DNA from: Candidatus Berkelbacteria bacterium
GTDB lineage: Bacteria > Patescibacteriota > UBA1384 > XYA2-FULL-43-10 > CAINNR01
Assembly (NCBI GenBank): GCA_037142675.1
Contig: JBAXAF010000003.1
Location: forward strand, 3,717 to 67,716
Length of the DNA: 64,000 nt
Direction: 5' to 3'
The position numbers and the translations under genes were made by a program. This document shows positions 11,259 to 63,370 of the stretch, piece after piece; position 1 is the first letter of the stretch; each line of letters opens with the position of its first letter. The notes beneath the pieces are model-generated. The model ran no database searches. It was not told where the DNA came from and saw nothing but the letters and a program-made list of their open reading frames with translations.

Positions 11259-11298
11259 CTAATAACTAATAGTGAATAACGAATGGCTATTGAAATGA

Positions 11299-12489
11299 CT
11301 ATTTTGAATCGGAGTCTATTGTTTCTTCAATCTTCTCGGCGTCTTTGTCTGTTGATTCTACTGATTCTTCCTTAATAATCTCCTCTTTTTCAACGGTGAC
11401 AGCTTTGTCGCTGGCGTCCGCATCTTTGGTAGTACTGCCTGATCCTTCGGCCTTTTCGATATCAATTCCCCAACCAGCCAATTTTGAGGCTAATCGAACA
11501 TTCTGTCCGTTCTTACCGATAGCAAGTGATAATGAATCTTCTGGGACATAAACAATGGCCTTATTGTCCTTTGAAGAAATAACTATTTTTTCGCATTTAG
11601 CGGGAGAAAGTGCATTCATAATAAATCTTTCAACGTCTTCGTCCCAAAGAATAATATCGATTTTCTCATCACCGATTTCGGCTAACACTGATTGAACTCT
11701 GGTTCCCCGCTGTCCAACGCATGATCCTATAGGGTCAATATTTTCATCGGTGGCAATAACTGCCATTTTGGTACGGGAGCCAGCTTCACGAGCTAGACTT
11801 TTAATCTCAACTGTTCCATTTGCGATTTCCGGCACTTCGAGCTCGAACAATCCTTTAATCAGTCCTTCGTCGGCACGCGAAACTAGAATTTGTGGGCCAC
11901 GGGATGTTTGCGCAACTTCCTTAATATAGACTTTCAGGCGCTGGCCAACATAATAACGTTCATCGCGAATCTGATCGCTTGGGAACATCACGGCATTCAC
12001 TTTTCCAAGAGAAACGATAACATTTTTGCCTTCAATTTGCTGGACTGAACCATTTCCGATTGTATGTTCGCGATCCTTAAATTCTGTGAAGATCATATCG
12101 CGTTCTGCTTCTCTGATCCGTTGAATTATAACCTGTTTGGCAGTTTGAGCTGCAATTCGTCCAAAAGTTTCTTCCTTTGGAAGTGGCTCAATAATTTCGT
12201 CGCCCAGGACGGCTTTTTTATTGTCTTTCTTTGCGTCGGTTAATGATATTTCTGCTTCTGGATTTTCTAATTCTTCATCATCAACAACTGTTGTAACTTG
12301 AAACATTTCGGCTTCGCCGGTTTTTGGATCCATTTTAGCTCGAATTACTTGTCGTGGTTTGCCGTAATCTTTTCTGTAAGCTGCAGCTAGAGCAGCCTCA
12401 ACGGTGGATATTACAGTTTCAATATCTAGACCTTTTTCTTCACAAAGCTCTTGAATTGCTTCCATGAAATTTACATTGTCTCCAGTCAT
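11299..12489 (-). CDS. nusA: Transcription termination/antitermination factor NusA.
   Basis: N-terminal NusA domain, S1 and tandem KH domains, and an acidic C-terminal tail. 396 aa. Confidence 0.85.
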   Translation of the reverse strand: MTGDNVNFMEAIQELCEEKGLDIETVISTVEAALAAAYRKDYGKPRQVIRAKMDPKTGEAEMFQVTTVVDDEELENPEAEISLTDAKKDNKKAVLGDEIIEPLPKEETFGRIAAQTAKQVIIQRIREAERDMIFTEFKDREHTIGNGSVQQIEGKNVIVSLGKVNAVMFPSDQIRDERYYVGQRLKVYIKEVAQTSRGPQILVSRADEGLIKGLFELEVPEIANGTVEIKSLAREAGSRTKMAVIATDENIDPIGSCVGQRGTRVQSVLAEIGDEKIDIILWDEDVERFIMNALSPAKCEKIVISSKDNKAIVYVPEDSLSLAIGKNGQNVRLASKLAGWGIDIEKAEGSGSTTKDADASDKAVTVEKEEIIKEESVESTDKDAEKIEETIDSDSK

Positions 12490-12520
12490 TTTTCTCCTTC
12501 TTCTTATTAAGTTGTAATTC

Positions 12521-12610
12521 TAACACGGATCAACTACACGGATTGACACGGAATAAAAATGTATTATCCGTGAAAGTCCGTGTGATAAATCCGTGAATGA
12601 ATTTCCGTTT
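12521..12610. promoter_or_regulatory. Array of at least 6 short repeats of CACGGAT/ATCCGTG in both orientations, in the 5' region of nusA.
   Basis: Seen directly: acacggat..acacggat..acacggaa..atccgtg..tccgtgtg..atccgtg..ttccgtt within 90 bp upstream of the nusA start (minus strand). Confidence 0.45.
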
Positions 12611-12722
12611 ATGTATATTTTTTAAAAAAAGTGGCCACCGCAGGGTCACCACAATCCACATTTATATGATAGCAAGTGAGAGAAATTTTGTCAATATGCG
12701 GGCTTATCAGCTTTTAAAGAGT

Positions 12723-13562
12723 TTAATTAGCTAGTTTGTATTTAAACACTCGCCAAACAAGTTTTGGGAGAGCAATTTGGCGGCGATAACGCTTGGGCTC
12801 CAGTATTAAGCGCCACAACCACTCGAGTCCGATTGCCCTAACGAATTTTGGTGCTCTTTTGCGACGGCCAGCGAGAAAATCAAAAGTTCCACCAACACCA
12901 ATGCCGATTTTGGCGCCGGTTTTAACCAAATTCCGTTCGAGCCAGAGTTCTTCTGCTGGAACACCATAAGCGACAAATAAAATATCCGGCTTGTCCTTTT
13001 TCATCAATTCTAAAATTTTTGCCTCATCTTGTGGTTTTGGCGAACCTTCGTATGTGCCGGCAACTTTAAGCTGATAGATGTCAGTTTGCAGCTTTATTGC
13101 CGCTTGTTCCGGCACGGTTGGGTCGCCGCCAAGTAAAAAAATTCGCAAATCATTTTTGGCAGCATAATTTGACAGATCCCAAATGAAATCGGAGCCGGAA
13201 ATTCGCTCAGGGATTGGTTTTTTCAAATATTTTGGATACAAAATTATTGCGGCTAAGCTGGCAAAAAGTTTGGAAAAACCAATAATGTAGCGCAAAAATT
13301 TGTCTTTTGGTAAATTTAGCGATAAGAACTTTGCCGCCCAGAGAACGCCGATGCCATCGGCAAAGTTTAGTGAGGAATTATTTAGCATATCAAATACTGC
13401 GCTATCATTTAACGCTCGAAAGAGAAATTCAACATTGACAGTAGTAATGAAGATTGGTTTTTTTGTCGAAATTTTTTGGTCAATAAAACGAATTGATTCT
13501 TCCCTGCCGAAGGAATCGATTGGCACACCGAGAATATTAACTTTCTTGCGTGATATTTTCAT
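12723..13562 (-). CDS. WecB/TagA/CpsF-family glycosyltransferase (GT26).
   Basis: 279 aa with the typical GT26 C-terminal motifs (GVGGTFDFLAG...RAP.....GLEWLWRL..EP.R). Confidence 0.75.
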   Translation of the reverse strand: MKISRKKVNILGVPIDSFGREESIRFIDQKISTKKPIFITTVNVEFLFRALNDSAVFDMLNNSSLNFADGIGVLWAAKFLSLNLPKDKFLRYIIGFSKLFASLAAIILYPKYLKKPIPERISGSDFIWDLSNYAAKNDLRIFLLGGDPTVPEQAAIKLQTDIYQLKVAGTYEGSPKPQDEAKILELMKKDKPDILFVAYGVPAEELWLERNLVKTGAKIGIGVGGTFDFLAGRRKRAPKFVRAIGLEWLWRLILEPKRYRRQIALPKLVWRVFKYKLAN

Positions 13563-14894: not shown

Positions 14895-15009
14895 AATAAT
14901 TTCTAAATCCTAATATCTAATTTAAAATAAAATTCCTAATGATTAAATTTCTAACTTGAGATTTGGTTTTTGATATTTCATTTGACATTAGTAATTCGAG
15001 ATTAGTTAT

Positions 15010-29939: not shown

Positions 29940-30016
29940 GGGCCGTTAGCTCAGTTGGCTAGAGCACTTCGCTGGCAGCGAAGGGGTCGCTGGTTCGAAT
30001 CCAGTACGGTCCACCA
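29940..30016 (+). tRNA. tRNA-Ala(GGC): tRNA-Ala, anticodon GGC, with the G3:U70 identity pair and an encoded CCA.
   Basis: GGGCCGT-TA-GCTC-AGTTGGCTA-GAGC-A-CTTCG-CTGGCAG-CGAAG-GGGTC-GCTGG-TTCGAAT-CCAGT-ACGGTCC-A-CCA. 77 nt. Confidence 0.85.
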
Positions 30017-31600
30017 CAATGACTTTGTGCCTTCAGATATAGTACTTTTATCGCTCCCAGAGTGGGAAAATGCTGGTTCTAACCTAGCATTTTTTTGTTG
30101 ATAAGATTTGGCAATTTCAGCAAACGGCTCTCGCCAAAAACGATCTCCCACACTGAGTATTCCGTTCTTCATAGTTAAGTTCTTACCTAAGGTTATCAAT
30201 ATCTCACGACGAGCCTGTTTGTCGCCATTTAGGAAGTTAATTTGAGCATAGGCAACGAACTCAACGGCTTTCTCCAATATTTCGGTACAGTTGTTAATTT
30301 TCTTCTCGGCAGTATTCAATCTCTCTATGGCCAAAGCTTTCTCTCTGTTAATTTCAACTTTTCTAGCAACATATTCATTACTATCAACAAAGCCTTCAAT
30401 TTTGGAGTCCAAAAGTCTTTTTAGTTTGTCATCACATTTTAAAACCTCGCCTTGGGCACTTTTTGTGATTAGTTCTTTCTCTCCAAATTCCTCTTCATTA
30501 GATCTTTTCAACTTATTCATGGCAAATTGCAAAAATTCGTCAGGCAGTTTTGTTTCTCCCAACCTTTCAATAATTTGTTTCTCCAACTCTGGCTCGAGTG
30601 TATTTTTCCTGTCTTGGCAATAGAAATCTCGTTTCTTGTGCGTGCAGTGGTAATAAGTATATTCTTTTGACTGCCCCGTGCTCTTAATGTCTTTAGTTTT
30701 AGTTTCGGCTGTAATGGCACAGCCACAAACTTCACACTGAACGGCACCAGTATAGGCAAAATCGCGAGTTTTGGCCCTAGTTTTTCCTCTATCGCCTAAA
30801 AACTTTTGAACGCAGTCAAACTCTTCGAGCGTAACCATTGGCTCATGAGTTGCTTTGTATTGGTTCCCTCGGTATTCTAGTCGGGCAGTATAAAAGATAT
30901 TGCTGAAAGTTTTGTAGATTAAGCTGTAACCCAGTGGCCTAGCCGAGTATTTACCTCGTGGCTTGGTTGTTAGCCCCCACTCCTTGTTGGCAATATCACA
31001 GATCTGCTGTGGATTGTAGTTGCCAGACAGCATCATTTCCCACATTTTCCTTACCAATTCAAAGCGGTCTGGATCTTTTTCAATATGAGCGCTCTTTTTG
31101 CTGTCTCTGACATTAATGTAGCCAATGGGGGCACGGCTTGGATATTCACCCTTTTCAAATTTGCTCAAAACACTGCGTGAAATGTTTGTGCTCAAATCCT
31201 TTACATACTGATTAGCCATTCCCATTTCGAGAGACATCATTACAACATTATCTTCAGGGGCGTATTCTTTTTCGAAAGTCACAATTCGCTTAATAATGCT
31301 TTCTTGTAGCAAATAGCTAATAGTGCCGGCATCAACAGGATTTCTGGCCAAACGATCTAGTTTCCAACAGATAATCCCACTAGCTTCGCCTTTTTGGATT
31401 CTTTGAATCATCTCGGCAAAGAGAGGGCGAACATATGGGTTTTTGGCTGATTTTGCCTCTTGGATAATATCAACAACCACCAAACCCTTTTCCTGGGCGA
31501 TTCGCTTCAAGAATTTGATTTGATCGGGCAACGATTCAATTTGATTGTCGCCACGATCTGTTGATTTTCGGGCATAAATGAAGAATTTTTCTTTAGTCAT
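29951..31600 (-). CDS. Large serine recombinase (resolvase-type catalytic domain, recombinase domain, zinc-ribbon/coiled-coil). The likely start is MTKEKFF at 31600; the ORF is open to 31657. Its last 66 nt read through the 3' half of tRNA-Ala.
   Basis: N-terminal IYARKSTDRGDNQ (catalytic Ser context), and C-terminal CEVCGC...YYHC zinc ribbon with coiled-coil. RBS aggaaaaataatATG. Confidence 0.8.
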   Translation of the reverse strand: MTKEKFFIYARKSTDRGDNQIESLPDQIKFLKRIAQEKGLVVVDIIQEAKSAKNPYVRPLFAEMIQRIQKGEASGIICWKLDRLARNPVDAGTISYLLQESIIKRIVTFEKEYAPEDNVVMMSLEMGMANQYVKDLSTNISRSVLSKFEKGEYPSRAPIGYINVRDSKKSAHIEKDPDRFELVRKMWEMMLSGNYNPQQICDIANKEWGLTTKPRGKYSARPLGYSLIYKTFSNIFYTARLEYRGNQYKATHEPMVTLEEFDCVQKFLGDRGKTRAKTRDFAYTGAVQCEVCGCAITAETKTKDIKSTGQSKEYTYYHCTHKKRDFYCQDRKNTLEPELEKQIIERLGETKLPDEFLQFAMNKLKRSNEEEFGEKELITKSAQGEVLKCDDKLKRLLDSKIEGFVDSNEYVARKVEINREKALAIERLNTAEKKINNCTEILEKAVEFVAYAQINFLNGDKQARREILITLGKNLTMKNGILSVGDRFWREPFAEIAKSYQQKNARLEPAFSHSGSDKSTISEGTKSLWWTVLDSNQRPLRCQRSALAN

Positions 31601-31647
31601 ATTATTTTTCCTATAAAAAAGAGAGGCAATAGCAAGAAGTTTCAAGT

Positions 31648-31714
31648 TACGACACAAGAAACGGCTACTGCCTCACTTTTACAAAAAACTTCTATTGCGT
31701 TGTCTTGTGTCGTG
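31648..31714. promoter_or_regulatory. Imperfect 16-nt inverted repeat (acgacacaagaaacgg / cgttgtcttgtgtcgtga) flanking a roughly 33-nt spacer, just upstream of the recombinase start.
   Basis: Seen directly in the recombinase 5' region, between the 69-aa ORF stop and the recombinase ATG. Confidence 0.35.
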
Positions 31715-33408: not shown

Positions 33409-36400
33409 TTGGTCGAGTATCTTGGCTTAATAATTTTAAAAAATATGGCTGACTATAGCCAAAAATTTGACGCAAAAGCATATTGGGCAACTAAACCGTT
33501 TTGTTCTGTTTGCAAAAATCACAAGGTGAAAAACGGAACAATTTGTTATAAATGCAAGGGAAATATGGAAAAAAACAAAATAGCTAACACAATTGAAGAG
33601 AGCTTTGATACTGAGGATGAAAAAGCTACATCATCTACTACTACCAAAATTCCTGAGAAATTCTCTCAAATAAAATTTGATAAAAGTTTTATTAAAAAAC
33701 TATTGGACAAACTAAAGGTTGGCAATGCCAGATCGATTCACCTCAACGCGGTTCCTGGTCGATCTGCTACACGATTAGACCTGCACCAGTTATCAGAAAT
33801 TGATCCTGAAATGCCACTCGATTTTATCAAAACTATATTGAACAAAGAAAGCTTCTCATTCTCTATTTCATTTGACAAAATTGATCTAGGAGAGCTGGAA
33901 GATAGTGAGAAGAAAAAACTTGTGCTTATTTCTAAAAGACTAAATGCACTTGTAATAGAAAAAGAAGATAATTTTTTGGAATTTGGTCTCAAGAATTTTG
34001 GTTTTGGTTATCCAATATTAATAAAACGTGACCAAAATGACCCAACAAAAATTATTAAAGCGCCTCTTTTCATCTGGCACTTAGACATCGAAAGATCATA
34101 TCAGAATAAAAATAACTGGACCATTAAAAAAGATGAAGATTCGCCGATCAAGATTAATGAAATACTGATCTCTCACCTCTCAAAAGATGAGTCAGTCAAA
34201 ATAGAAAAAATCTCCCAAGAAATTCTCGAAGATGGAATACTAGATGAGACCGAACTTCTAGAGATGAGTAGCAATATATTGTCGCAACTAAATTCTAAAG
34301 TTGATAATTTATCGATTAGAATAGATAAGTGTCCTGATTCGAAAGAGATTGAAGCAATCGCAAATTCTAAACCATGGATTCAATGGAGTGGAATTTTTGG
34401 GATTTATCGTTCGCAAAATGAAACAATCATCCACTCGACAGAAGAACTGCTTGAGAGATTCGATGAATTTGAAAGTGAAAAGTTGGTATTAGAGCAATTT
34501 CAAACATCCAGCATATCTGCGGTTGAAACTGACCCTAGCAAAGAAGAGATTGTTAACACATTAACGAAAGATGAAATTAAGTTAATCCAGGGGCCACCAG
34601 GAACTGGTAAAAGTCAAAGTATTACAGCTATTGTGTCTAATGCACTTGCAAACAACGCTAAATGTCTTATTGTCTGCGAAAAGAAAACGGCGCTTGATGT
34701 AATAAATGAAAATTTGAAAAAGATTGGGTTGGACAGCTACTCAATCCTTATCGACGATGTTAACAAAGACAGGAAAAAAGTCATCCAAAAAGCACGTGAT
34801 ATTAAAGAATCGCCATATTACCCGTCATTCGCGAGAAAAGATTTTGAAATTAAATATGAAAAATTTTGTGAGCTAAAAAATGATATTAATCTAAAGAGCG
34901 CTGAGACACTTCAAAAAGTTTTAGGAGATATTTCCTGGAAGCAGCTAGTCGGTTTATATTTGAAATTTTCTAAGTCGGGAGATATAGATAAAATTGCTTC
35001 AGAAATTAACTACAGCCAACTAAAATTTGACCACCAAGAATACTCTGACTACCTTGCCATGGTAGAAGAATCCGTTTTTCTTTTTGATGATTTGGAAAAA
35101 AATTCAGAGGAAGTCTTTTCCTTATTGCGCGACACATCGTTTTTAACTCCTTACCGTTCCACTGACAAAGAAAATTTAAAGGATGAAATTGAAATTATTT
35201 CTCAAATTGCAAAATCCTCTGAACAATTTCTGATCAAAAATGCACAGTCTGGTTTCGAAGAAAAAGGAATTTCGTTGTTTAAGCCGAAATCGATCGTAAA
35301 ATGCAAATTGCAATTATCTGAATTGAAACAAGCACTAAAAGAAATTATTGACTTGTATGAGGCCGGGATTAAATTAGTTGGTGATGAGTTTAACAAAAAG
35401 GGCTTGGTCCAAAATGTTAGGTACCAAGTCTCAGCTTTATTTGGCACCAAACATAAAAAAATATATGCTATCAGAAGAAAAATTCCCACATTACTAAAAA
35501 ATGCCACTCAGATTATCTCGGAATTAGAAAAGTTTGGTTTTGGAAACTTAAGCCTAAAAAAATTTGAAGCACACGAGTCGTGCAAAAGCTTAAAAAATAA
35601 TTCTATAGATACTTTAGGGGAAGTCAAAAAAATTGAATCAAAGATAGATCAAATCAAGAAAAATGAAGACGAATTAATAAGCATCTACAAAAAGTTAATG
35701 GAATCTGCAGAAAAAAAGATTTTTGACCTTGATATCAAAAGTTATATTTCCTTAGGAAATCGTGCTCAGCTAGTTAAATTCTTCAAGGACATGGGTGATG
35801 TCATCGAAAATGTTCGTTGCCATTTGGATGCTTACGAGAGTTATCATAACTGGAAATATTTTTGCAGTAATAAGAATAGTCTCGAATTACAGATTCTATC
35901 TGCACTTAAAGATTCTCCGCCAGAAAACTGGAGAAACATTTTTATTGCTTGGTATTATCGTGGAACATTACAAAATTATGAAAATACAACAAAAGTCGGA
36001 TTTCACAAGTCAAATTCTAAATTACAACAGCTATCTGGAGTCTATAATGAGCTCTGTGATTCCCAGATTCAACAAATTAAATCAAATTGGGGAAATAGCA
36101 GAAGCTACCAAATATCCAAAATTGATTATAACTTCAATACCCTATTTAGCTTGAGAAAAAACAACGCGGGGCCAAAAAGTTCGCTTAGAAAAATTATTGA
36201 CAAAGATTTTGATTTATTCACCACTTTGTTTCCAGTTATTTTAACTAACCCTGCAGCTGCAAATGCTATTTTTCCTCTCACCCAGGGATTGTTTAATATT
36301 GTCATCTTTGATGAGGCTAGCCAGTTGAGAATCTCTGACACTTTTACAAGTCTAATCCGCGGACAATATAAAATCATCGCTGGAGATGAACATCAGATGC

Positions 36401-37608
36401 CTCCTTCAAGCTATTTTCAAAGTACTGCTGAGTTGCTAGATAACCCTGAAGGAGAAGAGATTGAGTCAACTGCAGACGAAGATGAGCAAGCGGTTTTAGC
36501 TGAAAGTGAATCCTTGCTTCAATATGCCAGTGATTTAAAGAATGTGAACAAGTCGTACTTGGATTTTCACTACCGCTCAAATCATCCTGCTCTAATCGAC
36601 TTTTCAAACTGCGCTTTTTATGGAGGAAATCTGGTCCCTTTTCCACCGCAAGAAATTTACACCCCAATAGAATTCAGAGCTATCAATGGTCGTTACGAAA
36701 CTAGGACCAACCCATCAGAAGTTATCGAAATAATAAAAATCATCAAGAATGAAATTCATGCTGATCAAAAAGGTAAATACCCATCAGTTGGGATAGCCAC
36801 TTTTAACATAAACCAAAGGAATCTGATTACCGAGGCATTAAATGAATGGGCGGAAAAGGATCCATCTTTTGGCAGAAAACTTCTGGAGTTAAGGGAGTGT
36901 GGTTTGTTCGTAAAGAATTTGGAAAATATTCAAGGTGACGAAAAAGACATTATCATTATCTCAACTACTTATGGGATTCAAGAAGACGGAAGTTTTTCGC
37001 AGAATTTTGCGAGACTAAATAGAATTGAAGGCTATAAATTGCTGAATGTTCTAATTACCAGAGCTAAGCACAAACTTTATGTTTGCACTTCAATTCCAAA
37101 AGAAAAATATCTTTCTTATGCTGACATTATACAAAACGAGGGAAATAACAAAAAGGGCATTCTGTACGCCTATCTTGCATATGCCGAAGCAGTCTCAAGC
37201 CATAATACCGAATCAGCAGAAGGAATTTTAAGAACATTAAAAGAATACAGTTATGAAAAACCTAGAATTATTTCGAACTCAGATGGTCTTTCCGAGTCCC
37301 CATTTGAAGAAGAAGTCTACGAGATGCTTTGTGACCAATTCAAGGCTGAAAATGTAATCCAGCAACATAAGATTGGTGGTTTTCGCCTAGATTTTGTCAT
37401 TAAAGCAAAATCAACAGATATTGTCCTGGAATGTGACGGGAAAGCATATCATCAGTCCGAAGAAGCGTACGCTCATGACATGTACCGACAAAAGGAGCTC
37501 GAGAAACTAGGTTTTGTGGTTTACAGAATCTGGTCAACAAACTGGTTTCAAGACAAGGAAATTGAAATGCAAAAACTAGTCAGATTTGTCGAATCTAAAA
37601 GCCAGTGA
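33409..37608 (+). CDS. SF1 (DNA2/Upf1-like) helicase with an N-terminal Cys-rich region, a DUF4011-like domain and a C-terminal DUF559/Vsr-like (PD-(D/E)xK) endonuclease domain. It is a helicase-nuclease and a candidate defence protein (Hhe-like architecture). The likely start is MADYSQ at 33445.
   Basis: Walker A LIQGPPGTGKSQSITAIV, Walker B-like IVIFDEASQL, motif VI-like LNVLITRAKHKL. The C-terminal GGFRLDFVIKAKSTDIVLECDGKAYHQS...YRIWSTNWFQDKE matches the DUF559/Vsr-like endonuclease consensus. N-terminal CSVC...CYKC. Confidence 0.7.
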   Translation: MVEYLGLIILKNMADYSQKFDAKAYWATKPFCSVCKNHKVKNGTICYKCKGNMEKNKIANTIEESFDTEDEKATSSTTTKIPEKFSQIKFDKSFIKKLLDKLKVGNARSIHLNAVPGRSATRLDLHQLSEIDPEMPLDFIKTILNKESFSFSISFDKIDLGELEDSEKKKLVLISKRLNALVIEKEDNFLEFGLKNFGFGYPILIKRDQNDPTKIIKAPLFIWHLDIERSYQNKNNWTIKKDEDSPIKINEILISHLSKDESVKIEKISQEILEDGILDETELLEMSSNILSQLNSKVDNLSIRIDKCPDSKEIEAIANSKPWIQWSGIFGIYRSQNETIIHSTEELLERFDEFESEKLVLEQFQTSSISAVETDPSKEEIVNTLTKDEIKLIQGPPGTGKSQSITAIVSNALANNAKCLIVCEKKTALDVINENLKKIGLDSYSILIDDVNKDRKKVIQKARDIKESPYYPSFARKDFEIKYEKFCELKNDINLKSAETLQKVLGDISWKQLVGLYLKFSKSGDIDKIASEINYSQLKFDHQEYSDYLAMVEESVFLFDDLEKNSEEVFSLLRDTSFLTPYRSTDKENLKDEIEIISQIAKSSEQFLIKNAQSGFEEKGISLFKPKSIVKCKLQLSELKQALKEIIDLYEAGIKLVGDEFNKKGLVQNVRYQVSALFGTKHKKIYAIRRKIPTLLKNATQIISELEKFGFGNLSLKKFEAHESCKSLKNNSIDTLGEVKKIESKIDQIKKNEDELISIYKKLMESAEKKIFDLDIKSYISLGNRAQLVKFFKDMGDVIENVRCHLDAYESYHNWKYFCSNKNSLELQILSALKDSPPENWRNIFIAWYYRGTLQNYENTTKVGFHKSNSKLQQLSGVYNELCDSQIQQIKSNWGNSRSYQISKIDYNFNTLFSLRKNNAGPKSSLRKIIDKDFDLFTTLFPVILTNPAAANAIFPLTQGLFNIVIFDEASQLRISDTFTSLIRGQYKIIAGDEHQMPPSSYFQSTAELLDNPEGEEIESTADEDEQAVLAESESLLQYASDLKNVNKSYLDFHYRSNHPALIDFSNCAFYGGNLVPFPPQEIYTPIEFRAINGRYETRTNPSEVIEIIKIIKNEIHADQKGKYPSVGIATFNINQRNLITEALNEWAEKDPSFGRKLLELRECGLFVKNLENIQGDEKDIIIISTTYGIQEDGSFSQNFARLNRIEGYKLLNVLITRAKHKLYVCTSIPKEKYLSYADIIQNEGNNKKGILYAYLAYAEAVSSHNTESAEGILRTLKEYSYEKPRIISNSDGLSESPFEEEVYEMLCDQFKAENVIQQHKIGGFRLDFVIKAKSTDIVLECDGKAYHQSEEAYAHDMYRQKELEKLGFVVYRIWSTNWFQDKEIEMQKLVRFVESKSQ

Positions 37609-37621
37609 ATAGTGCAAGATT

Positions 37622-39157
37622 ATGATAAATATTTACGTTACTGCCTCAAAACTTTATGATTATATTCAGTGTCCGCATAAAGTATGGCGGGATATTTACG
37701 GTCCGCAGAATGAAAAAATTGTCGAATCCAATCCTTTCATTGAGCTACTCTGGAAAAAGGGAATCCAACATGAAAAAAGGGTTGTCTCTGGCATAGGCAG
37801 CTTTTTAGATTTGAGCCAAGGGGATCTTGATGAAAGATTTAAAAAAACCCTAGAAGCTCTCAAAAATCATACGCCGCTGATTTACCAGGGTGTGATAAAA
37901 TATGGCAACTTATTCGGCATTCCAGATTTGCTGGAGCTAATGCCGGATGGCACTTATGTACCCATTGATATAAAATCTGGGTCTGCTTATGAAGGTGAAG
38001 ATGAAGAGCAAGATGCTGAAGGTAAACCAAAGTTGCATTACGCTGTCCAGCTGTGCCTTTATAACGACGTTTTGAAAAAGCTTGGGTTTGCCAATCATAA
38101 CAATGGCCAAGTTATTGATATTCGCCTTGATAAAGATGAATACAATCTTGTTGCACCTAAAGGGACAAGAGACAAAACAACTTGGTGGGATAATTACGAG
38201 AAGATTAAAAATGATGTCTGGCTGCTACTTAATGATGAAATAAGAAACAAACCGTCATATTCAGGTAAATGTAAATTATGCCCCTGGTACAAAAGTTGTA
38301 AAAACTGGTGTCAGGAAACGAACGATTTAACCAATATCTTTAATCTTGGAAGAGCCAACCGCGATAGAATCAACGAAGATCTTGGTATAGATAATCTGAC
38401 AGATTTGATGTCGGTTGATATTCCGTCCGTGATGGAAAAAAAAGAGTTGGAAAAAAAATCGGGCGATAAGAATTTTCTATTCAGAATTTCCGATAATACC
38501 CTGGAAAAGGCAGTTGAAAGGGCTAGAGTCTCACTAATTACAAAAAAACCAGTAATCTATCAACCAGAGGTATTCCCTGATGTCAGTTATGAATTATTCT
38601 TTGATATTGAAGACGATCCAACTCAAGAATTTGTCTATCTACACGGTGTATACGAAAGGCACAATCAAGAGGAACGGTTTCTGGATTTTACTGCTAGAGA
38701 AATAAGTTCTGCAGCTGAAAAAGCTGCTTGGTCAGATTTTTGGCAATATATTGAATCACTTCCCCAAGATGACTATTCTGTATACTATTATTCACATCAC
38801 GAAAAGACAACTTACAAAAGGATGCAGAAACTGTACCCGGATGTAATTTCCGCGAAAAAACTAGAAGAGTTTTTTGACAATCCAAATGTTATCGATCTAT
38901 ATAGCGTCATTCGCTCTAAAACTAATTGGCCGCTTCCAAGTTATTCCCTAAAGGAAATCGCTGTTTACCTCGGTTTTAAATGGAGAGATGAAACGCCATC
39001 TGGCGCGCTCTCAATCCAGTGGTTCAATAATTATATTGAACAGAAAGATCCTGAAATTCTTAAGAGGATTCTGCTTTACAACGAAGACGATTGCAAAGCG
39101 ACAATGGTTATCAAGGATGCGATCGTTAATCTAGAAATAACAGAAAGGATTATATGA
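37622..39157 (+). CDS. RecB/Cas4-like PD-(D/E)xK nuclease with C-terminal Cys cluster, fused to a predicted PolB-like 3'-5' exonuclease (RNase H-like) domain. TM0106-type architecture.
   Basis: N-terminal YDYIQCPHKVW, GIPDLLE...PIDIKSG (D..E.K), CKLCPWYKSCKNWC cysteines. The C-terminal ELFFDIEDDP...VYLHGV motif is typical of RNase_H_2-like exonuclease domains. Confidence 0.6.
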   Translation: MINIYVTASKLYDYIQCPHKVWRDIYGPQNEKIVESNPFIELLWKKGIQHEKRVVSGIGSFLDLSQGDLDERFKKTLEALKNHTPLIYQGVIKYGNLFGIPDLLELMPDGTYVPIDIKSGSAYEGEDEEQDAEGKPKLHYAVQLCLYNDVLKKLGFANHNNGQVIDIRLDKDEYNLVAPKGTRDKTTWWDNYEKIKNDVWLLLNDEIRNKPSYSGKCKLCPWYKSCKNWCQETNDLTNIFNLGRANRDRINEDLGIDNLTDLMSVDIPSVMEKKELEKKSGDKNFLFRISDNTLEKAVERARVSLITKKPVIYQPEVFPDVSYELFFDIEDDPTQEFVYLHGVYERHNQEERFLDFTAREISSAAEKAAWSDFWQYIESLPQDDYSVYYYSHHEKTTYKRMQKLYPDVISAKKLEEFFDNPNVIDLYSVIRSKTNWPLPSYSLKEIAVYLGFKWRDETPSGALSIQWFNNYIEQKDPEILKRILLYNEDDCKATMVIKDAIVNLEITERII

Positions 39158-41203: not shown

Positions 41204-41581
41204 GTTGAAAAAAGACTCATTTTTTGAGATAATTAGCTCGTTAATTATACAATTTGTTACGCCTAAACTTTAATGAAAATTAAGGCATGGCGTTAAAACC
41301 ACATGAATAGAGATGGTCTTATGACTTGCATCATTCATGTGGTGTACGCCGGAAACGGTGTATGGAGCCCCGAAAGGGATACTTCGCTAGCTCATAAGGC
41401 CTTTTTTGTATCTTTGGGGGCAACCACCGACAAAAGTTTAGTTCTGTCTGCAAAAACACTTAAAAATGTATCAATTTGTCTCTTGATTGTTCAATTTTGT
41501 CTAACAATCTTAAAATTAGTTAATGCTGGAATGAATAAAAATATTCAATAATGCCAATAAAATGGTAGACAAGGTCAAATC

Positions 41582-47501: not shown

Positions 47502-50306
47502 ATGAAAGATGCTGATAAAAAGAACTTTTACTGCCTAGATATGTTCCCGTATCCATCGGGAAGTGGTTTGCATGTTGGCCACCCTCGTGGTTATACAGCT
47601 ACCGATGTTTACTCGCGGTTCAAAAAACTCCAGGGTTTTAATGTTATCCACCCCATGGGTTGGGATGCTTTCGGACTTCCTGCGGAAAATTACGCTATTA
47701 AAAACAAAACTCACCCATCTAAGGTTGTCGAAGAAAATGTTGCTCACTTTAAATCTCAACTAGAAAAGTTTGATCTTTCATATGATTGGGAAAAAGAAGT
47801 AAATACCACTGACCCAAAATATTATCGTTGGACGCAATTCATTTTTCTTAAATTGTTTGAACGCGGTTTGGCCTATGAAGCTGAAGTGCCAATCAACTAC
47901 TGCCCATCTTGTAAAACCGGCTTAGCCAATGAGGAAGTTGTTGGCGGAAAATGCGAGCGTTGTGGAACTGCAGTCGAGAGAAAAAATATTCGCCAGTGGA
48001 TTTTGAAAATCACTGAATATGCAGATCGCCTATTGGAAGATTTGGATGGCCTGGATTGGCCAGAACCAATTAAAGAAATGCAAAAAAATTGGATTGGGCG
48101 AAGCGAAGGGAGCAATATTCGCTTCGAGCTTAAAGCGAAAAGCGAAAAGCGAAAAGCTGTGGAGTCGCTAAGCGATGACTATTTTATTGAAGTTTATACC
48201 ACCAGGGCTGATACTTTATACGGTTGCACCTGGGTGGTTTTGGCACCTGAACACATATTAGTTGACAAGTTAAAAGTTGAAAGTGAAAATCAAGAAGAAA
48301 TTAATGAGTATATTCAGAAATCCAAAAACAAATCAGATCTCGAACGAACGGAATTACAAAAAGAAAAAACTGGCGTCGAGCTAAAAGGCATCAAGGCAAT
48401 TAATCCTATAAATGGCAAGGAAGTTGCTGTTTGGGTTGCCGATTATGTCTTGGGCCATTATGGAACTGGTGCGGTAATGGCCGTCCCTGCTCACGATGAA
48501 CGTGACTTCGAATTTGCTAAAAAATATGACATTGATATTATCCAAACGATTGCGCCGCAAGTTACATATTATAAAACTCCACCAAAGGATGGTTTGCCAT
48601 ACGTTGAGAGAAACAGCATCGAAGTCATAGTCCGCGACCCAAAAACTGATAAATACCTTTGTCTAGAGTGGAAGAACCAGCCTTGGACAACATTTGTCAC
48701 CGGTGGTGTTGACGACGGTGAAGATTATCTAAGTGCTGCAAAACGCGAATTTCTAGAAGAAACCGGTTACAAGAACATTAAACTCATAAAATCTCTTGGC
48801 AGAACTCGGGCGGTTTTTCACGCTGCACACAAAAATGAAAATCGAGTTGGTAATATGGAAGGTTTTCTTTTTGAGCTAGTTGATGATGAGCGAAATGATA
48901 TGTCAAGTGACGAAAAAGCCATCCATGAAGTTATTTGGCTTTCGCGTGACGAATTAAAAATTGAGCGCATTGTTTGCGCTAGCTTTGAATACTGGATGCG
49001 CGGAATTGATGACAAGAGAAAAGCAATTGAAGACTACGGATATTTGGTAAATTCTGAGGAATTTAATGGCCTTTCATCTGCTGATGCCAAAAAGAAAATT
49101 ACTGAAAAACTAAAAGAATCTGGTCACGGGGATTTTACCGTTAACTACAAACTTCGTGATTGGGTTTTTTCTCGCCAGCGATATTGGGGCGAGCCAATTC
49201 CTATTGTTCATTGCGAAAAGTGTGGTATTGTTGCTGTTCCCGAAACAGATTTGCCGGTGCTTTTGCCTCATGTTGAAAAGTATGAGCCGACCGGCGATGG
49301 CACATCTCCCCTGTCTAACGAGTCTGATCCTGCAATTGCGGCTTGGCTCAATACCACATGCCCAGAGTGCGGTGGAAAAGCAAAACGTGAAACTAATACA
49401 ATGCCGCAGTGGGCCGGAAGTTGCTGGTACTATATCGCCTACCTGATGAAAACTGGTGATGAATATGTTTGGGATCGCGACAAAATTGACCCCTGGTTGC
49501 CAGTGAATTTATACGTCGGCGGCGCAGAACACGCAGTTCTGCATTTACTTTACTCCAGATTCTGGCACAAGGTTTTGTATGATGAAAAACTAGTTGGTAG
49601 CATTGAGCCATTCCAAAAGTTAATATCAGTCGGAACTATTTTGGGAATTGATGGTGTTAAAATGTCCAAATCGCGAGGTAATGTTATTGACCCTGATCCA
49701 CTGATTGAGAAATTTGGTTCCGACGCTTTAAAAATGTATGAACTCTATATTGGCCCGTTTTCACAACCAGCAAAATGGAGTCAAAATGGAATTGTTGGTA
49801 TGCACCGGTTTCTACAAAAAGTTGAAAAAATTTCAGATGCCGAAATCTCCGAATCAAATTCGAAAAATCTAGTGCCGATTAACAAAGCAATTAAGAAAGT
49901 TGCTGGGGATATTGAAAGTTTTAGCTTCAACACTGCGATTAGCACCTTAATCGAAACATTTGATCTTATTTCGACCAACAGTTGGGATAAACCATCAGCT
50001 GAAATATTTTTAACGCTCCTGTCCCCCTTCGCGCCGAAAATGGCCGAGCAAGTATCGCAAAAAATTGGAATTCAAATACCAATTTGGCCGGAATTCGATC
50101 CGAAGTACATCGCTGATGATAAAGTTACTATTGCTATCCAAATCAATGGAAAAGTTCGCGATCAAATTGAGATCGCAATTGATGAACCAGAGGAAAAAGT
50201 TAAGGAGTTAGTTTTAGAGAGAGAAAAGATAAAAAGCTGGATTTTAGAAGCTAAAATAAAGAAATTTATCTATGTTCCAGGCAAAATCATTAGTATTGTG
50301 GTCTAG
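47502..50306 (+). CDS. leuS: Leucyl-tRNA synthetase, with a roughly 150-aa insertion containing a complete NUDIX domain.
   Basis: HIGH region (HVGHPRGY). Editing domain (...AVPAHDERDFEFAKKYDIDI). Then an inserted segment with a perfect Nudix box GGVDDGEDYLSAAKREFLEETGY. Then canonical NYKLRDWVFSRQRYWGEPIPIVHCEKCG, a KMSKS-type VKMSKSRGN, and the anticodon-binding domain. Confidence 0.9.
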   Translation: MKDADKKNFYCLDMFPYPSGSGLHVGHPRGYTATDVYSRFKKLQGFNVIHPMGWDAFGLPAENYAIKNKTHPSKVVEENVAHFKSQLEKFDLSYDWEKEVNTTDPKYYRWTQFIFLKLFERGLAYEAEVPINYCPSCKTGLANEEVVGGKCERCGTAVERKNIRQWILKITEYADRLLEDLDGLDWPEPIKEMQKNWIGRSEGSNIRFELKAKSEKRKAVESLSDDYFIEVYTTRADTLYGCTWVVLAPEHILVDKLKVESENQEEINEYIQKSKNKSDLERTELQKEKTGVELKGIKAINPINGKEVAVWVADYVLGHYGTGAVMAVPAHDERDFEFAKKYDIDIIQTIAPQVTYYKTPPKDGLPYVERNSIEVIVRDPKTDKYLCLEWKNQPWTTFVTGGVDDGEDYLSAAKREFLEETGYKNIKLIKSLGRTRAVFHAAHKNENRVGNMEGFLFELVDDERNDMSSDEKAIHEVIWLSRDELKIERIVCASFEYWMRGIDDKRKAIEDYGYLVNSEEFNGLSSADAKKKITEKLKESGHGDFTVNYKLRDWVFSRQRYWGEPIPIVHCEKCGIVAVPETDLPVLLPHVEKYEPTGDGTSPLSNESDPAIAAWLNTTCPECGGKAKRETNTMPQWAGSCWYYIAYLMKTGDEYVWDRDKIDPWLPVNLYVGGAEHAVLHLLYSRFWHKVLYDEKLVGSIEPFQKLISVGTILGIDGVKMSKSRGNVIDPDPLIEKFGSDALKMYELYIGPFSQPAKWSQNGIVGMHRFLQKVEKISDAEISESNSKNLVPINKAIKKVAGDIESFSFNTAISTLIETFDLISTNSWDKPSAEIFLTLLSPFAPKMAEQVSQKIGIQIPIWPEFDPKYIADDKVTIAIQINGKVRDQIEIAIDEPEEKVKELVLEREKIKSWILEAKIKKFIYVPGKIISIVV

Positions 50307-55543: not shown

Positions 55544-55580
55544 ATTTGTCCTTACGTATTATTTTGATTTAGTGAATTTT

Positions 55581-55612
55581 TCTGTGATATTCCGTGTGAA
55601 AAATCCGTGTGG
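55581..55612. promoter_or_regulatory. tctgtgatattccgtgtgaaaaatccgtgtgg: two copies of the ATCCGTGTG element in the aspS 5' spacer.
   Basis: Seen directly between the pheT stop and the aspS start. Confidence 0.4.
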
Positions 55613-57868: not shown

Positions 57869-57900
57869 TTTTTTGTTATATTTATGATTTTTCTGCGCCT

Positions 57901-57923
57901 ATCTGTGTATAAAATCCGTGTAG
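57901..57923. promoter_or_regulatory. atctgtgtataaaatccgtgtag: the same element in the pheT 5' spacer.
   Basis: Seen directly between the pheS stop and the pheT start. Confidence 0.4.
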
Positions 57924-58601
57924 TTAGAATTGTTTAAGAAATCTTAAATCTCCAGAGCGTAGCAATCGGATATCCTCGATGCCATATTTCAACATGACCA
58001 ACCTATCTACTCCCATGCCAAAGGCAAAACCGGAATATTTTTCTGGATCCAGACCCATGTTTTTAATAACTTTTGGATGAACCATGCCCGCGCCCAAAAG
58101 CTCTAGCCACTTACCATTGTATTTGGCTGAAACTTCGAATCCAGGTTCTACGAAAGGGAAAAAACTTGGGGTAAATTTGACTTCAGTGTCTTCGCCATAG
58201 ATTTTTTTGAAGAAGTGTTCCAAAGTGTAGAACAAATTACTAACCTTAACATCTTTGTCGACATATAAGCCTTCAAGCTGGAAGATTGCCGCCTCGTGCT
58301 TAAAATCTGTTGCCTCGTTGCGATAGACTTGTCCGGGAGAAAGAATTCTAAATGGTGGTTTGTGATCTTTGCCAAAGTGAATTTGGCCATTGGAAGTTTG
58401 AGTTCGAAGAACTCGACCATCTGATAGCCAAAAAGTGTCTTGCATATCACGAGCAGGATGGTCTGATGGCATATTTAGAGCATCGAAGTTATACCACTCA
58501 GAGTCTACCTCTGGACCATCAAATACTTCAAAACCCAAACCTTCAAATATTTTGATGGTTTGACGCAAGAGTTGAGTGATTGGATGTAAATTACCCTTCA
58601 T
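57924..58601 (-). CDS. pheS: Phenylalanyl-tRNA synthetase alpha subunit, N-terminally truncated (catalytic core only, 225 aa).
   Basis: Class II motifs FRILSPGQVYRNEATDFKHEAAIFQLEG, FPFVEPGFEV, GAGMVHP, GFAFGMGVDRL. No room for the usual N-terminal coiled-coil, because the start overlaps the stop of the upstream membrane-protein gene. Confidence 0.85.
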   Translation of the reverse strand: MKGNLHPITQLLRQTIKIFEGLGFEVFDGPEVDSEWYNFDALNMPSDHPARDMQDTFWLSDGRVLRTQTSNGQIHFGKDHKPPFRILSPGQVYRNEATDFKHEAAIFQLEGLYVDKDVKVSNLFYTLEHFFKKIYGEDTEVKFTPSFFPFVEPGFEVSAKYNGKWLELLGAGMVHPKVIKNMGLDPEKYSGFAFGMGVDRLVMLKYGIEDIRLLRSGDLRFLKQF

Positions 58602-58990
58602 TTTGCTGATTTTTTAAATTTATTACCGCGGAAAAATAATTCAAGCATAATAATTGCAATTGTTAAGGGTGCGCCTACCCACAGATCTAATATTTTCAGG
58701 CCAGCTAAAATCAACAGTACGGTTGCCGCCAGTGAGATAATGGCCGAGATACGGAGTGTTGACCAAAATACATCCGACATTATTTTTTCTGATAGCCTTG
58801 ACCTGACAAAAAGCAGCGTAACAGTGATGAGTCCGGTAAAAGTAGCCCAAAATGAGACGTAGAGTAAGATAAAGACGGAAATGTCGGCTTTATACGGGCT
58901 ATAGTTGGTTAGAGTCAAAATTAAAGCCGCTAACGCAAAAACGCTAACTGACACGAGAAAGAACAGTTTGGCTTTCAAATTTGTCGTCAC
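58598..58990 (-). CDS. Hypothetical integral membrane protein (4 predicted TM helices).
   Basis: 130 aa, strongly hydrophobic segments. ATGA overlap with pheS. Confidence 0.5.
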   Translation of the reverse strand: MTTNLKAKLFFLVSVSVFALAALILTLTNYSPYKADISVFILLYVSFWATFTGLITVTLLFVRSRLSEKIMSDVFWSTLRISAIISLAATVLLILAGLKILDLWVGAPLTIAIIMLELFFRGNKFKKSAK

Positions 58991-59872: not shown

Positions 59873-60010
59873 TAATAAATTCTAAGCGCTAAATCCTAAA
59901 CTCTAAGCAATTTTCAAAATCCAAAATACAAATGTTTTAAATATTTGAGAATTTGGAATTAGTATTTGTTTAGAGTTTAGATATTAGAATTTAGAGTTTG
60001 ATTTTTCGTG

Positions 60011-62892: not shown

Positions 62893-62927
62893 ATCTGTGG
62901 TCAATATCCGTGCGATAAATCTGTGTA
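62893..62927. promoter_or_regulatory. atctgtggtcaatatccgtgcgataaatctgtgtaa: three copies of the ATC(C/T)GTG element in the rpsD 5' spacer.
   Basis: Seen directly between the rpsK stop and the rpsD start. Confidence 0.4.
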
Positions 62928-63324: not shown

Positions 63325-63370
63325 AATTCCTTAAGCTAATAGCTATTAGCTGACAGCTGCCAGCTTATTT

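Follow-up and report, generated by a model that had tools for sequence, protein, structure and literature searches.

The 64,000-nt stretch of contig JBAXAF010000003.1 of a Candidatus Berkelbacteria bacterium (hereafter the window; G+C content 39%) carries a dense array of short CACGGAT-type words 5' of nusA, and this array is the subject of the present analysis. The nusA gene occupies positions 11299..12489 of the minus strand and encodes a protein with the Pfam domains NusA_N, S1 and two KH domains, which is 100% identical to a protein of a Candidatus Berkelbacteria metagenome-assembled genome (MAG). Its upstream neighbour is a WecG/TagA glycosyltransferase gene (12723..13562) and its downstream neighbour is a ClpB/ClpC-type ATPase gene, not infB; the genes on either side of the array share one direction. 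Read in the sense of nusA, the 233-nt spacer holds a promoter, an imperfect hairpin with seven T after it, the array, and finally GGAG and the ATG, with the array lying 35-106 nt upstream of the nusA ATG.

Anatomy of the array and its counterparts in the window

The first-pass annotation, made from the sequence alone, had reported at least six CACGGAT-type words in both orientations upstream of nusA, and all six were found where it had placed them. The six CACGGA(T) words lie within 72 bp and form two inverted three-word modules of the layout word-N6-word-N3-word, corresponding to a spacing of 13 and then 10 nt in each, with 12 AT-rich nucleotides between the modules. Module A (12566..12595, minus strand, nusA sense) consists of CACGGAT at 12595-12589, CACGGAC at 12582-12576 and CACGGAT at 12572-12566, and Module B (12524..12553, plus strand), which is convergent with Module A, consists of CACGGAT at 12524-12530, CACGGAT at 12537-12543 and CACGGAA at 12547-12553. 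As RNA, the nusA leader is predicted to form a long hairpin (-49.6 kcal/mol, z = -4.4), the loop of which would be the AT-rich centre (12554..12565). In the predicted fold, the outer flank GGAAATTC (12599..12606, minus strand) pairs through 12599-12603 with the outer flank GAATT (12516..12520, minus strand). GGAAWTTC-like flanks also border arrays in other genomes of the candidate phyla radiation (CPR).

Counted over the whole window, CACGGA is not over-represented (16 observed, 16.2 expected), and 10 of the 16 copies are concentrated in four short spacers. Nine tandem CACRGA pairs were observed, against 0.05 expected from 300 dinucleotide-preserving shuffles of the window, and six words per 90 bp, against a maximum of three in such shuffles. 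Since the shuffles yield far fewer tandem pairs and words per 90 bp, the clustering of the words in the window is not due to chance.

The four arrays of the window share the 13/10 (or 13/13) architecture. Besides the nusA array, there are three solo modules on the coding strand (minus), each beginning 3 nt past a stop codon. CACGGAT-N6-CACGGAA-N3-CACAGAA (55580..55609) follows pheT, its first nucleotide being 55609, and lies upstream of a gene for a class II (Asp/Asn/Lys-type) aminoacyl-tRNA synthetase; CACGGAT-N6-CACAGAT-N3-CGCAGAA (57891..57920, beginning at 57920) lies between pheS and pheT; and CACAGAT-N6-CACGGAT-N6-CACAGAT (62893..62925, beginning at 62925) follows rpsK (S11) and precedes rpsD (S4). 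The pheS-pheT module is kept in two Berkelbacteria relatives (L072 and L075), and the rpsK-rpsD spacer of L075 holds a related module, so that these two modules, in contrast to the nusA array, are common to relatives.

Other spacers of the window (11259-11298, 14895-15009, 59873-60010 and 63325-63370) contain different short words, often as inverted sets, namely ATTCGTTAT/TATTAG, ACTAAT/ATTAG, CTCTAAA/TTTAGAG and AGCT. Word arrays seem to be a general trait of Berkelbacteria intergenic DNA. At the pheS locus (57924-58990, minus strand), the encoded PheS comprises only 225 aa, corresponding to the catalytic core alone, and a separate 130-aa open reading frame (ORF) without Pfam match overlaps the pheS start by 4 nt; in L075, pheS and the counterpart of this ORF are 119 nt apart, with CACTGAC word arrays in the spacer.

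Turnover at the nusA leader

The nusA leader was compared with those of four relatives obtained via NusA homologues (81-90% identity), of 12 metagenome loci (L145-L156) found by a scan with a conserved 25-mer of the hairpin region, and of a MAG with 98% NusA identity (L157). Gene order, promoter and hairpin/T-run are all kept in the four NusA-homologue relatives, which past the T-run hold unrelated inverted-repeat inserts or nothing. Likewise, L001, L002, L004 and L145-L156 retain promoter, hairpin and T-run, with unrelated inserts or nothing at the position of the array. In the 12 metagenome loci, the segment from the T-run to the ribosome-binding site varies from about 20 to about 190 nt, and no CACGGAT words were found in these leaders. 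The leader of the L157 MAG is near-identical through promoter and hairpin/T-run, wholly different in the array segment, and matches again from the ATG onwards. Altogether, the CACGGAT array was found in no other nusA leader among about ten relatives. Because the relatives keep the promoter and hairpin and carry other sequence at the array segment, the nusA array appears to be a recent, lineage-specific occupant of a hypervariable slot. No target-site duplication was recognised at the nusA site in comparison with L157, L004 or L149.

What is conserved lies outside the repeat element. Within the array no sigma-70 promoter is present, as the first-pass annotation had noted, but just upstream of it (12694..12666, minus strand) there is a strong sigma-70-type promoter, TTGACA-17-TATCAT, with an 11/12 match and a TG extension, which is kept in relatives. 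It is followed by the 5' element TGTGGATTGTGGTGACCCTGCGGTG (12624..12660, minus strand), consisting of a hairpin (12652-12631) and the T-run (12630-12624). Promoter and 5' element are present in every nusA leader examined (about ten lineages, with a changed stem in L004), and the sequence downstream of them varies.

The hairpin and T-run at the start of the nusA transcript look like a terminator or attenuator. In Bacillus subtilis, nusA autoregulation operates through a terminator in the operon leader that depends on NusA, and the arrangement described here resembles it in that all relatives examined have an imperfect hairpin and a T-run immediately past the promoter upstream of nusA. The likeness concerns positions 12624-12694 and not the CACGGAT array, which is downstream and unconserved. 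The promoter/hairpin/T-run unit is a candidate for a NusA-autoregulated attenuator or a short 5' RNA; it is likelier than the array to be the regulatory element of nusA, and it is the feature of this leader that merits study.

A dispersed repeat family

A stringent three-word pattern with 16 fixed positions and 4 two-fold ones was run against a single genome of each GTDB species and matched at least 117 loci, where chance would give about 17 in 1.2e12 positions. The matches listed come from Berkelbacteria, Saccharibacteria, Nomurabacteria, Omnitrophota, Bacteroidota (including Algoriphagus isolates), Ignavibacteria, Chlorobiota, Acidobacteriota, Planctomycetota, Verrucomicrobiota, Elusimicrobiota, WOR-3, Abditibacteriota, Nitrospirota and others, and among them are several genomes with many three-word matches each. 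Relatives hold several array copies per 8 kb. In viral contigs there were two matches only, both of one and the same element.

The grammar of the family was drawn from 175 arrays. The word is aCRCNGAT (core aCAC[A/G]GAT), with A or G at position 2 and any base at position 4. T occupies position 7 in 82-93% of the words inside arrays, A precedes the word (position -1) in 70-85% of the second words of sampled pairs, and position 4 is A in 44-60% of words, the variants CACTGAT and CGCTGAT being common. Words on the same strand are most often 10 nt (291 cases) or 13 nt (174 cases) apart, and the two spacings alternate, so that long arrays have a 23-nt period. Where both orientations occur in an array, the arrangement is convergent, with the sense run first, in 36 cases and divergent in 3.

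Base pairing between the arms was assessed at the variable position 4, which was complementary in 75 of 112 pairs (69 ± 2.5 after shuffling of the partners). The arms of L098 carry words that disagree at position 4, and those of L066 carry words that disagree at positions 2 and 4. By this measure, the arms conserve the word rather than the base pair, and the covariance expected of a structured leader was not borne out; nor do the relatives of the nusA locus keep the structure. Rfam provided no family matching the arrays, either in the window at the gathering threshold or in nine array-rich loci at E ≤ 1; its output comprised only tRNAs, the LOOT RNA elsewhere in the window, one weak transfer-messenger RNA and spurious microRNA-like hairpins.

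The arrays are intergenic. Among 91 arrays, 23 lie between convergent genes, a slight excess, and 9 between divergent genes, a deficit. A stop codon lies no more than 20 nt away from 54 array ends, and at 49 of them the word is in the sense of the gene that ends there; solo arrays are on the sense strand in 28 cases and on the other in 13. Across many phyla, the three-word module has unrelated genes as its neighbours, and some copies lie between convergent genes. The enrichment in 5' spacers that the first-pass annotation had proposed to look for was found in part: intergenic DNA is strongly enriched in the word, yet this enrichment concerns the 3' ends of genes and the interior of operons and not specifically 5' regulatory regions.

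In Saccharibacteria (L066, L077 and L080), almost all spacers of the ribosomal-protein operons hold a 3+3 array flanked by GGAAATTCCAA, and several of these spacers have a second palindromic element of ~150 nt nested in the centre, which contains a promoter-like site, TTGACA-N17-TAGAAT. The MAG STD1_36 (L008, L018, L021, L025, L030 and others), a large genome, has intergenic DNA that is strikingly A/G-rich on the array strand; its spacers are full of the related words CACGAAA, ACAGAAA and CGCAGAGA, and its modules share a near-identical 35-nt sequence, TTAGC-CACGGATAACRGACACGGATTTNCACGGATAA.

A nuclease gene between arrays

An all-against-all BLAST comparison of 239 flanking ORFs revealed PDDEXK_3 to be the only array-embedded family common to several phyla. 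The protein has ~125 aa and belongs to PF13366 (PDDEXK_3) and to TIGR04256 ("GxxExxY protein"), with scores of 112-127 bits against a Pfam cut-off of 22 and of 114-136 bits against an NCBIfam cut-off of 35, respectively. Other recurrent neighbours formed lineage-local clusters only (secreted Kelch/LVIVD proteins of STD1_36, pheS and translation GTPases), and no gene for a transcription factor, which the first-pass annotation had suggested seeking, recurs beside the arrays.

In the array-selected loci, tblastn detected nine copies of the nuclease gene, five of which have a sense array on one side and an antisense array on the other, and eight of which touch an array. Because these loci had been selected for arrays, an independent test was made with eight further gene families fetched by protein alone. 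Arrays were present in seven of the eight: on both sides of the gene in L124, L126, L135 and L140 according to an automated count, on both sides in L134 and L141 as judged by eye, and on one side only in L127. Within 130 nt of the eight genes there were 14 array runs, whereas the array density in the remainder of these loci would predict about 0.7. In L124 the arrays adjoin the coding sequence directly, with the fourth sense word running up to the ATG and the first antisense word starting at the stop codon. Nuclease genes bracketed by convergent CRCNGAT arrays are found in L038, L054, L091, L102, L124, L126, L134, L135, L140 and L141. The cassettes interrupt well-known operons, on the same strand as their neighbours: between ruvA and ruvB, between the genes of a cysteine desulfurase (nifS-like) and nifU, and between type II secretion E and F genes. 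A Bacteroidales locus (L109) has the same layout with another word, CGCAAAGA upstream and TCTTTGCG downstream of the gene; therefore, the word differs between gene copies while the layout stays.

The confident structure model of the nuclease (predicted local distance difference test score 94.6) has as its closest folds Cas4 SSO0001 and nucleases of the lambda-exonuclease/RecB type; a sequence search of the PDB gave no match. The residues D, ExK and QxxxY do not vary among 44 sequences, which is what an active enzyme would be expected to show. The family is very large, with 7,988 of 8,000 candidates in the first family search at E ≤ 1e-10, and PF13366 is common in CPR lineages. A survey lists PF13366/TIGR04256 as of unknown function, with multiple transfers between divisions (PMC3424549). 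In the searchable literature, no paper was found that links word arrays with GxxExxY, PF13366 or TIGR04256, and one survey names the family.

Genes for 23S_rRNA_IVP proteins (PF05635, four-helix bundle) in CPR contigs also appear, by eye only, to be flanked by runs of short words, with ACAGAA/ACGGAT words at L134:2400-2960 and CGCAAAG and AACTAAA words at L004:20960-21170. The cassette layout may thus extend to other small genes present in many copies.

Other features of the window

A LOOT RNA (Rfam RF03000) was detected at 41260-41382 (plus strand) over its full length with 69.7 bits (gathering threshold 46.4), in a 692-nt spacer. A large serine recombinase gene with Resolvase and Zn_ribbon_recom domains (29951-31657, minus strand) overlaps a tRNA-Ala(GGC) gene (29940-30016), and long non-coding stretches follow this region, which is probably the edge of an integrated element. 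The region 33409-39157 (plus strand) encodes a helicase of 1399 aa (AAA_11/AAA_12), the C-terminus of which carries an MTES_1575/DUF559 restriction-endonuclease-like domain, and after it a protein with both a PDDEXK_1 and an RNase_H_2 domain; the two form a possible defence or repair module beside the recombinase. The leucyl-tRNA synthetase (47502-50306, plus strand) carries a NUDIX domain (residues 372-487) directly after its editing domain.

Discussion

We consider it probable that the nusA array belongs, as a palindromic copy without a gene, to a REP/RAYT-like repeat system (repetitive extragenic palindromes and their REP-associated tyrosine transposases) that is tied to the GxxExxY nuclease, with the words as its recognition sites. 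The full form of such an element would be a sense run and an antisense run bracketing the ~125-aa PD-(D/E)XK nuclease gene, and gene-less palindromes (such as the 3+3 array at nusA) as well as solo half-arrays (such as the three other arrays of the window) would be its abundant derivatives. With one recognition unit per helical turn, the nuclease would bind the arrays and probably cut at or next to them, through which arrays could be gained, lost and replaced in intergenic spacers. What the data show is how the arrays are built and dispersed, that they turn over at nusA and that they accompany the nuclease gene; that the protein binds the words and mobilises or maintains the arrays is what we infer. 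The nusA copy would have been acquired recently, between the conserved promoter, 5' hairpin and T-run on one side and the ribosome-binding site on the other; it would be co-transcribed and able to fold as a long hairpin, and any effect on nusA expression would be a side effect and not the reason for its presence.

Several observations weigh against this interpretation. The GxxExxY gene was not found by tblastn in ~150 kb of Berkelbacteria DNA (the window, L001-L005, L017, L037, L048, L072 and L075), and L131 has a GxxExxY family without CRCNGAT words and without arrays. No target-site duplication and no clean pair of empty and filled sites were recovered, and we know of no PD-(D/E)XK protein that acts as a stand-alone transposase. 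The array-selected loci are a biased sample, in which gene calls are crude ORF calls. Finally, the polarity of solo arrays and of array ends at stop codons could point to a role in RNA.

Such an RNA-level role is the main rival, even if we regard it as unlikely. It would have the words bound by an RNA-binding protein, or the hairpin stabilising, processing or insulating cistrons, and the flanks of the nuclease gene would be one use among others. Beyond the polarity, the position of arrays inside operons and between stop codons and terminators agrees with it, as do the A-rich flanks on the array strand in the MAG STD1_36, the z value of the nusA leader fold, an RNase III encoded in the window and the fit of CACGGA to the CsrA/RsmA core CANGGA. 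Yet the arms keep the word and not the pairing, as the complementarity at position 4, barely higher than after shuffling, and the mismatched arms of L098 and L066 indicate, and a hairpin alone leaves the excess of convergent over divergent arrays unexplained. Moreover, the GGA required by CsrA is missing from CACAGAT and CACTGAT, both of them common variants, some arrays lie past intrinsic terminators or in divergent spacers, and Rfam gave no match. RNA-level and DNA-level readings could both hold, if a DNA element is tolerated since its transcript is harmless or useful.

The first-pass annotation had proposed a multi-site operator or a structured leader. A genuine multi-site array of a specific word and a foldable hairpin are indeed present, but an operator or leader specific to nusA was rejected in view of the comparison of about ten orthologous leaders, from which the array is missing, and of the occurrence of the same module after the pheS, pheT and rpsK stop codons and beside unrelated genes. 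A broader version, in which a transcription factor controls nusA, pheST, the aminoacyl-tRNA synthetase gene and rpsD through an operator array, is improbable. All four arrays of the window do precede transcription or translation genes, direct repeats at helical-turn spacing are typical of operators of response regulators or ribbon-helix-helix proteins, and a Saccharibacteria genome has the module about 20 nt 5' of a TTGACA-N17-TAGAAT promoter. Against these stand the lack of conservation at nusA, the position of the array downstream of the nusA promoter and terminator-like hairpin, the arrays elsewhere that flank genes of all kinds, more often between convergent and less often between divergent genes, and the lack of a recurrent transcription-factor gene alongside. 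Still less probable are repeats without any partner, i.e. cryptic simple sequence arising from slippage or inverted duplication and kept as spacer DNA. CPR spacers, in the window and in relatives, are rich in ACTAAT/ATTAG, CTAAA/TTTAG, AGCT and GACTAAT/ATTCGTC arrays, often palindromic, and turnover at the nusA slot is rapid, as this would predict; it does not account for the recurrence of word, 10/13 spacing and polarity rule in unrelated phyla far above chance, nor for arrays that precisely abut one specific gene family. Two opposed arrays beside an A/T run superficially recall a replication origin with a cluster of DnaA boxes, a reading refuted in practice by copy number (four arrays per 64 kb and many per genome elsewhere, against single-locus DnaA 9-mers) and by the absence of the array at this site in close relatives; besides, the word differs from the DnaA box TTATCCACA, and the flanking genes run the same way.

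Some further identities were considered and dropped. CsrA/RsmA sites share a GGA core (A(N)GGA) that does not vary and that mostly sits in a hairpin loop and overlaps the Shine-Dalgarno sequence; here, the GGA core is not invariant, position 4 being variable, and the words occur on both strands. Pairing of the words to a conserved RNA was entertained as long as positions 2 and 4 looked purine-only, and was abandoned given the variants CACTGAT and CGCTGAT. Likenesses to elemental-pause, Rho rut, DnaA-box and IHF sequences do not fit the conserved positions, and a known RNA family was rejected after the Rfam search.

The proposed nuclease-linked system is close to REP elements, bacterial interspersed mosaic elements (BIME, or REPIN) and their RAYT proteins in many respects. 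Both consist of short extragenic multi-copy repeats, mostly at gene 3' ends or inside operons, with inverted pairs in one preferred arrangement and with positions and copy number that vary among close relatives, and in both one small nuclease-type gene is flanked by its own repeats. REP elements are rare in phages, as are the arrays in viral contigs. The flanked gene is, however, of the PD-(D/E)XK type (Cas4/RecB-like) and not a Y1 HUH transposase, the repeats are 7-8-nt words at 10/13 nt and not a 20-40-nt palindrome with a 5' GTAG, no GTAG being seen, and the CRCNGAT word is common to many phyla; mobilisation is only proposed here. Miniature inverted-repeat transposable elements (MITEs) likewise have inverted ends with several copies of a presumed protein-binding word, gene-containing and gene-less forms, solo ends, and copies nested in the centre of another copy (as in Saccharibacteria L066). 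The arrays differ from them in that no DDE transposase was present among the flanking ORFs, no target-site duplication was seen and the internal gene has its start and stop codons right at the borders of the element. The nusA array family is not a member of the REP/RAYT family and probably not one of the MITEs.

Two other systems share some traits with the arrays. The omega repressor of pSM19035 binds cooperatively to arrays of a 7-nt word, accepting direct and converging repeats and diverging ones poorly, and this preference matches the 36:3 orientation bias; arrays of 7-nt words link the present family to the omega heptads or to ribbon-helix-helix/ParR centromere arrays. The omega words (WATCACW) are contiguous and plasmid-borne, whereas the words described here are a helical turn apart, chromosomal and dispersed, and the associated protein has a nuclease fold. 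Mycobacterial interspersed repetitive units (MIRUs), 40-100-bp tandem units with small overlapping ORFs confined to mycobacteria, are also intercistronic, in one orientation relative to transcription, and abut neighbouring stop and start codons. Their longer tandem units and their restriction to mycobacteria set them apart, and we know of no nuclease partner for them.

Extending the nuclease-linked interpretation beyond the window, we tentatively propose, as something slightly short of an even chance, that GxxExxY proteins and CRCNGAT-type arrays constitute an undescribed, phylum-spanning repeat system, the PD-(D/E)XK counterpart of RAYT/REP. A minimal Cas4/RecB-like nuclease would recognise a short, co-varying word arrayed once per helical turn and would spread or maintain arrays in intergenic spacers, with or without its own gene, even inside the essential operons of reduced CPR genomes. 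One possible route would be that the gene homes into the centre of gene-less palindromic arrays.

For annotation, we conclude that such arrays should not be read as gene-specific operators or riboswitch-like leaders. If the proposal is true, it would explain a class of intergenic repeats that fills the spacers of CPR, Omnitrophota, Bacteroidota, Acidobacteriota and other poorly studied phyla, and the precise partner word would give the very large family PF13366/TIGR04256 its first functional handle.

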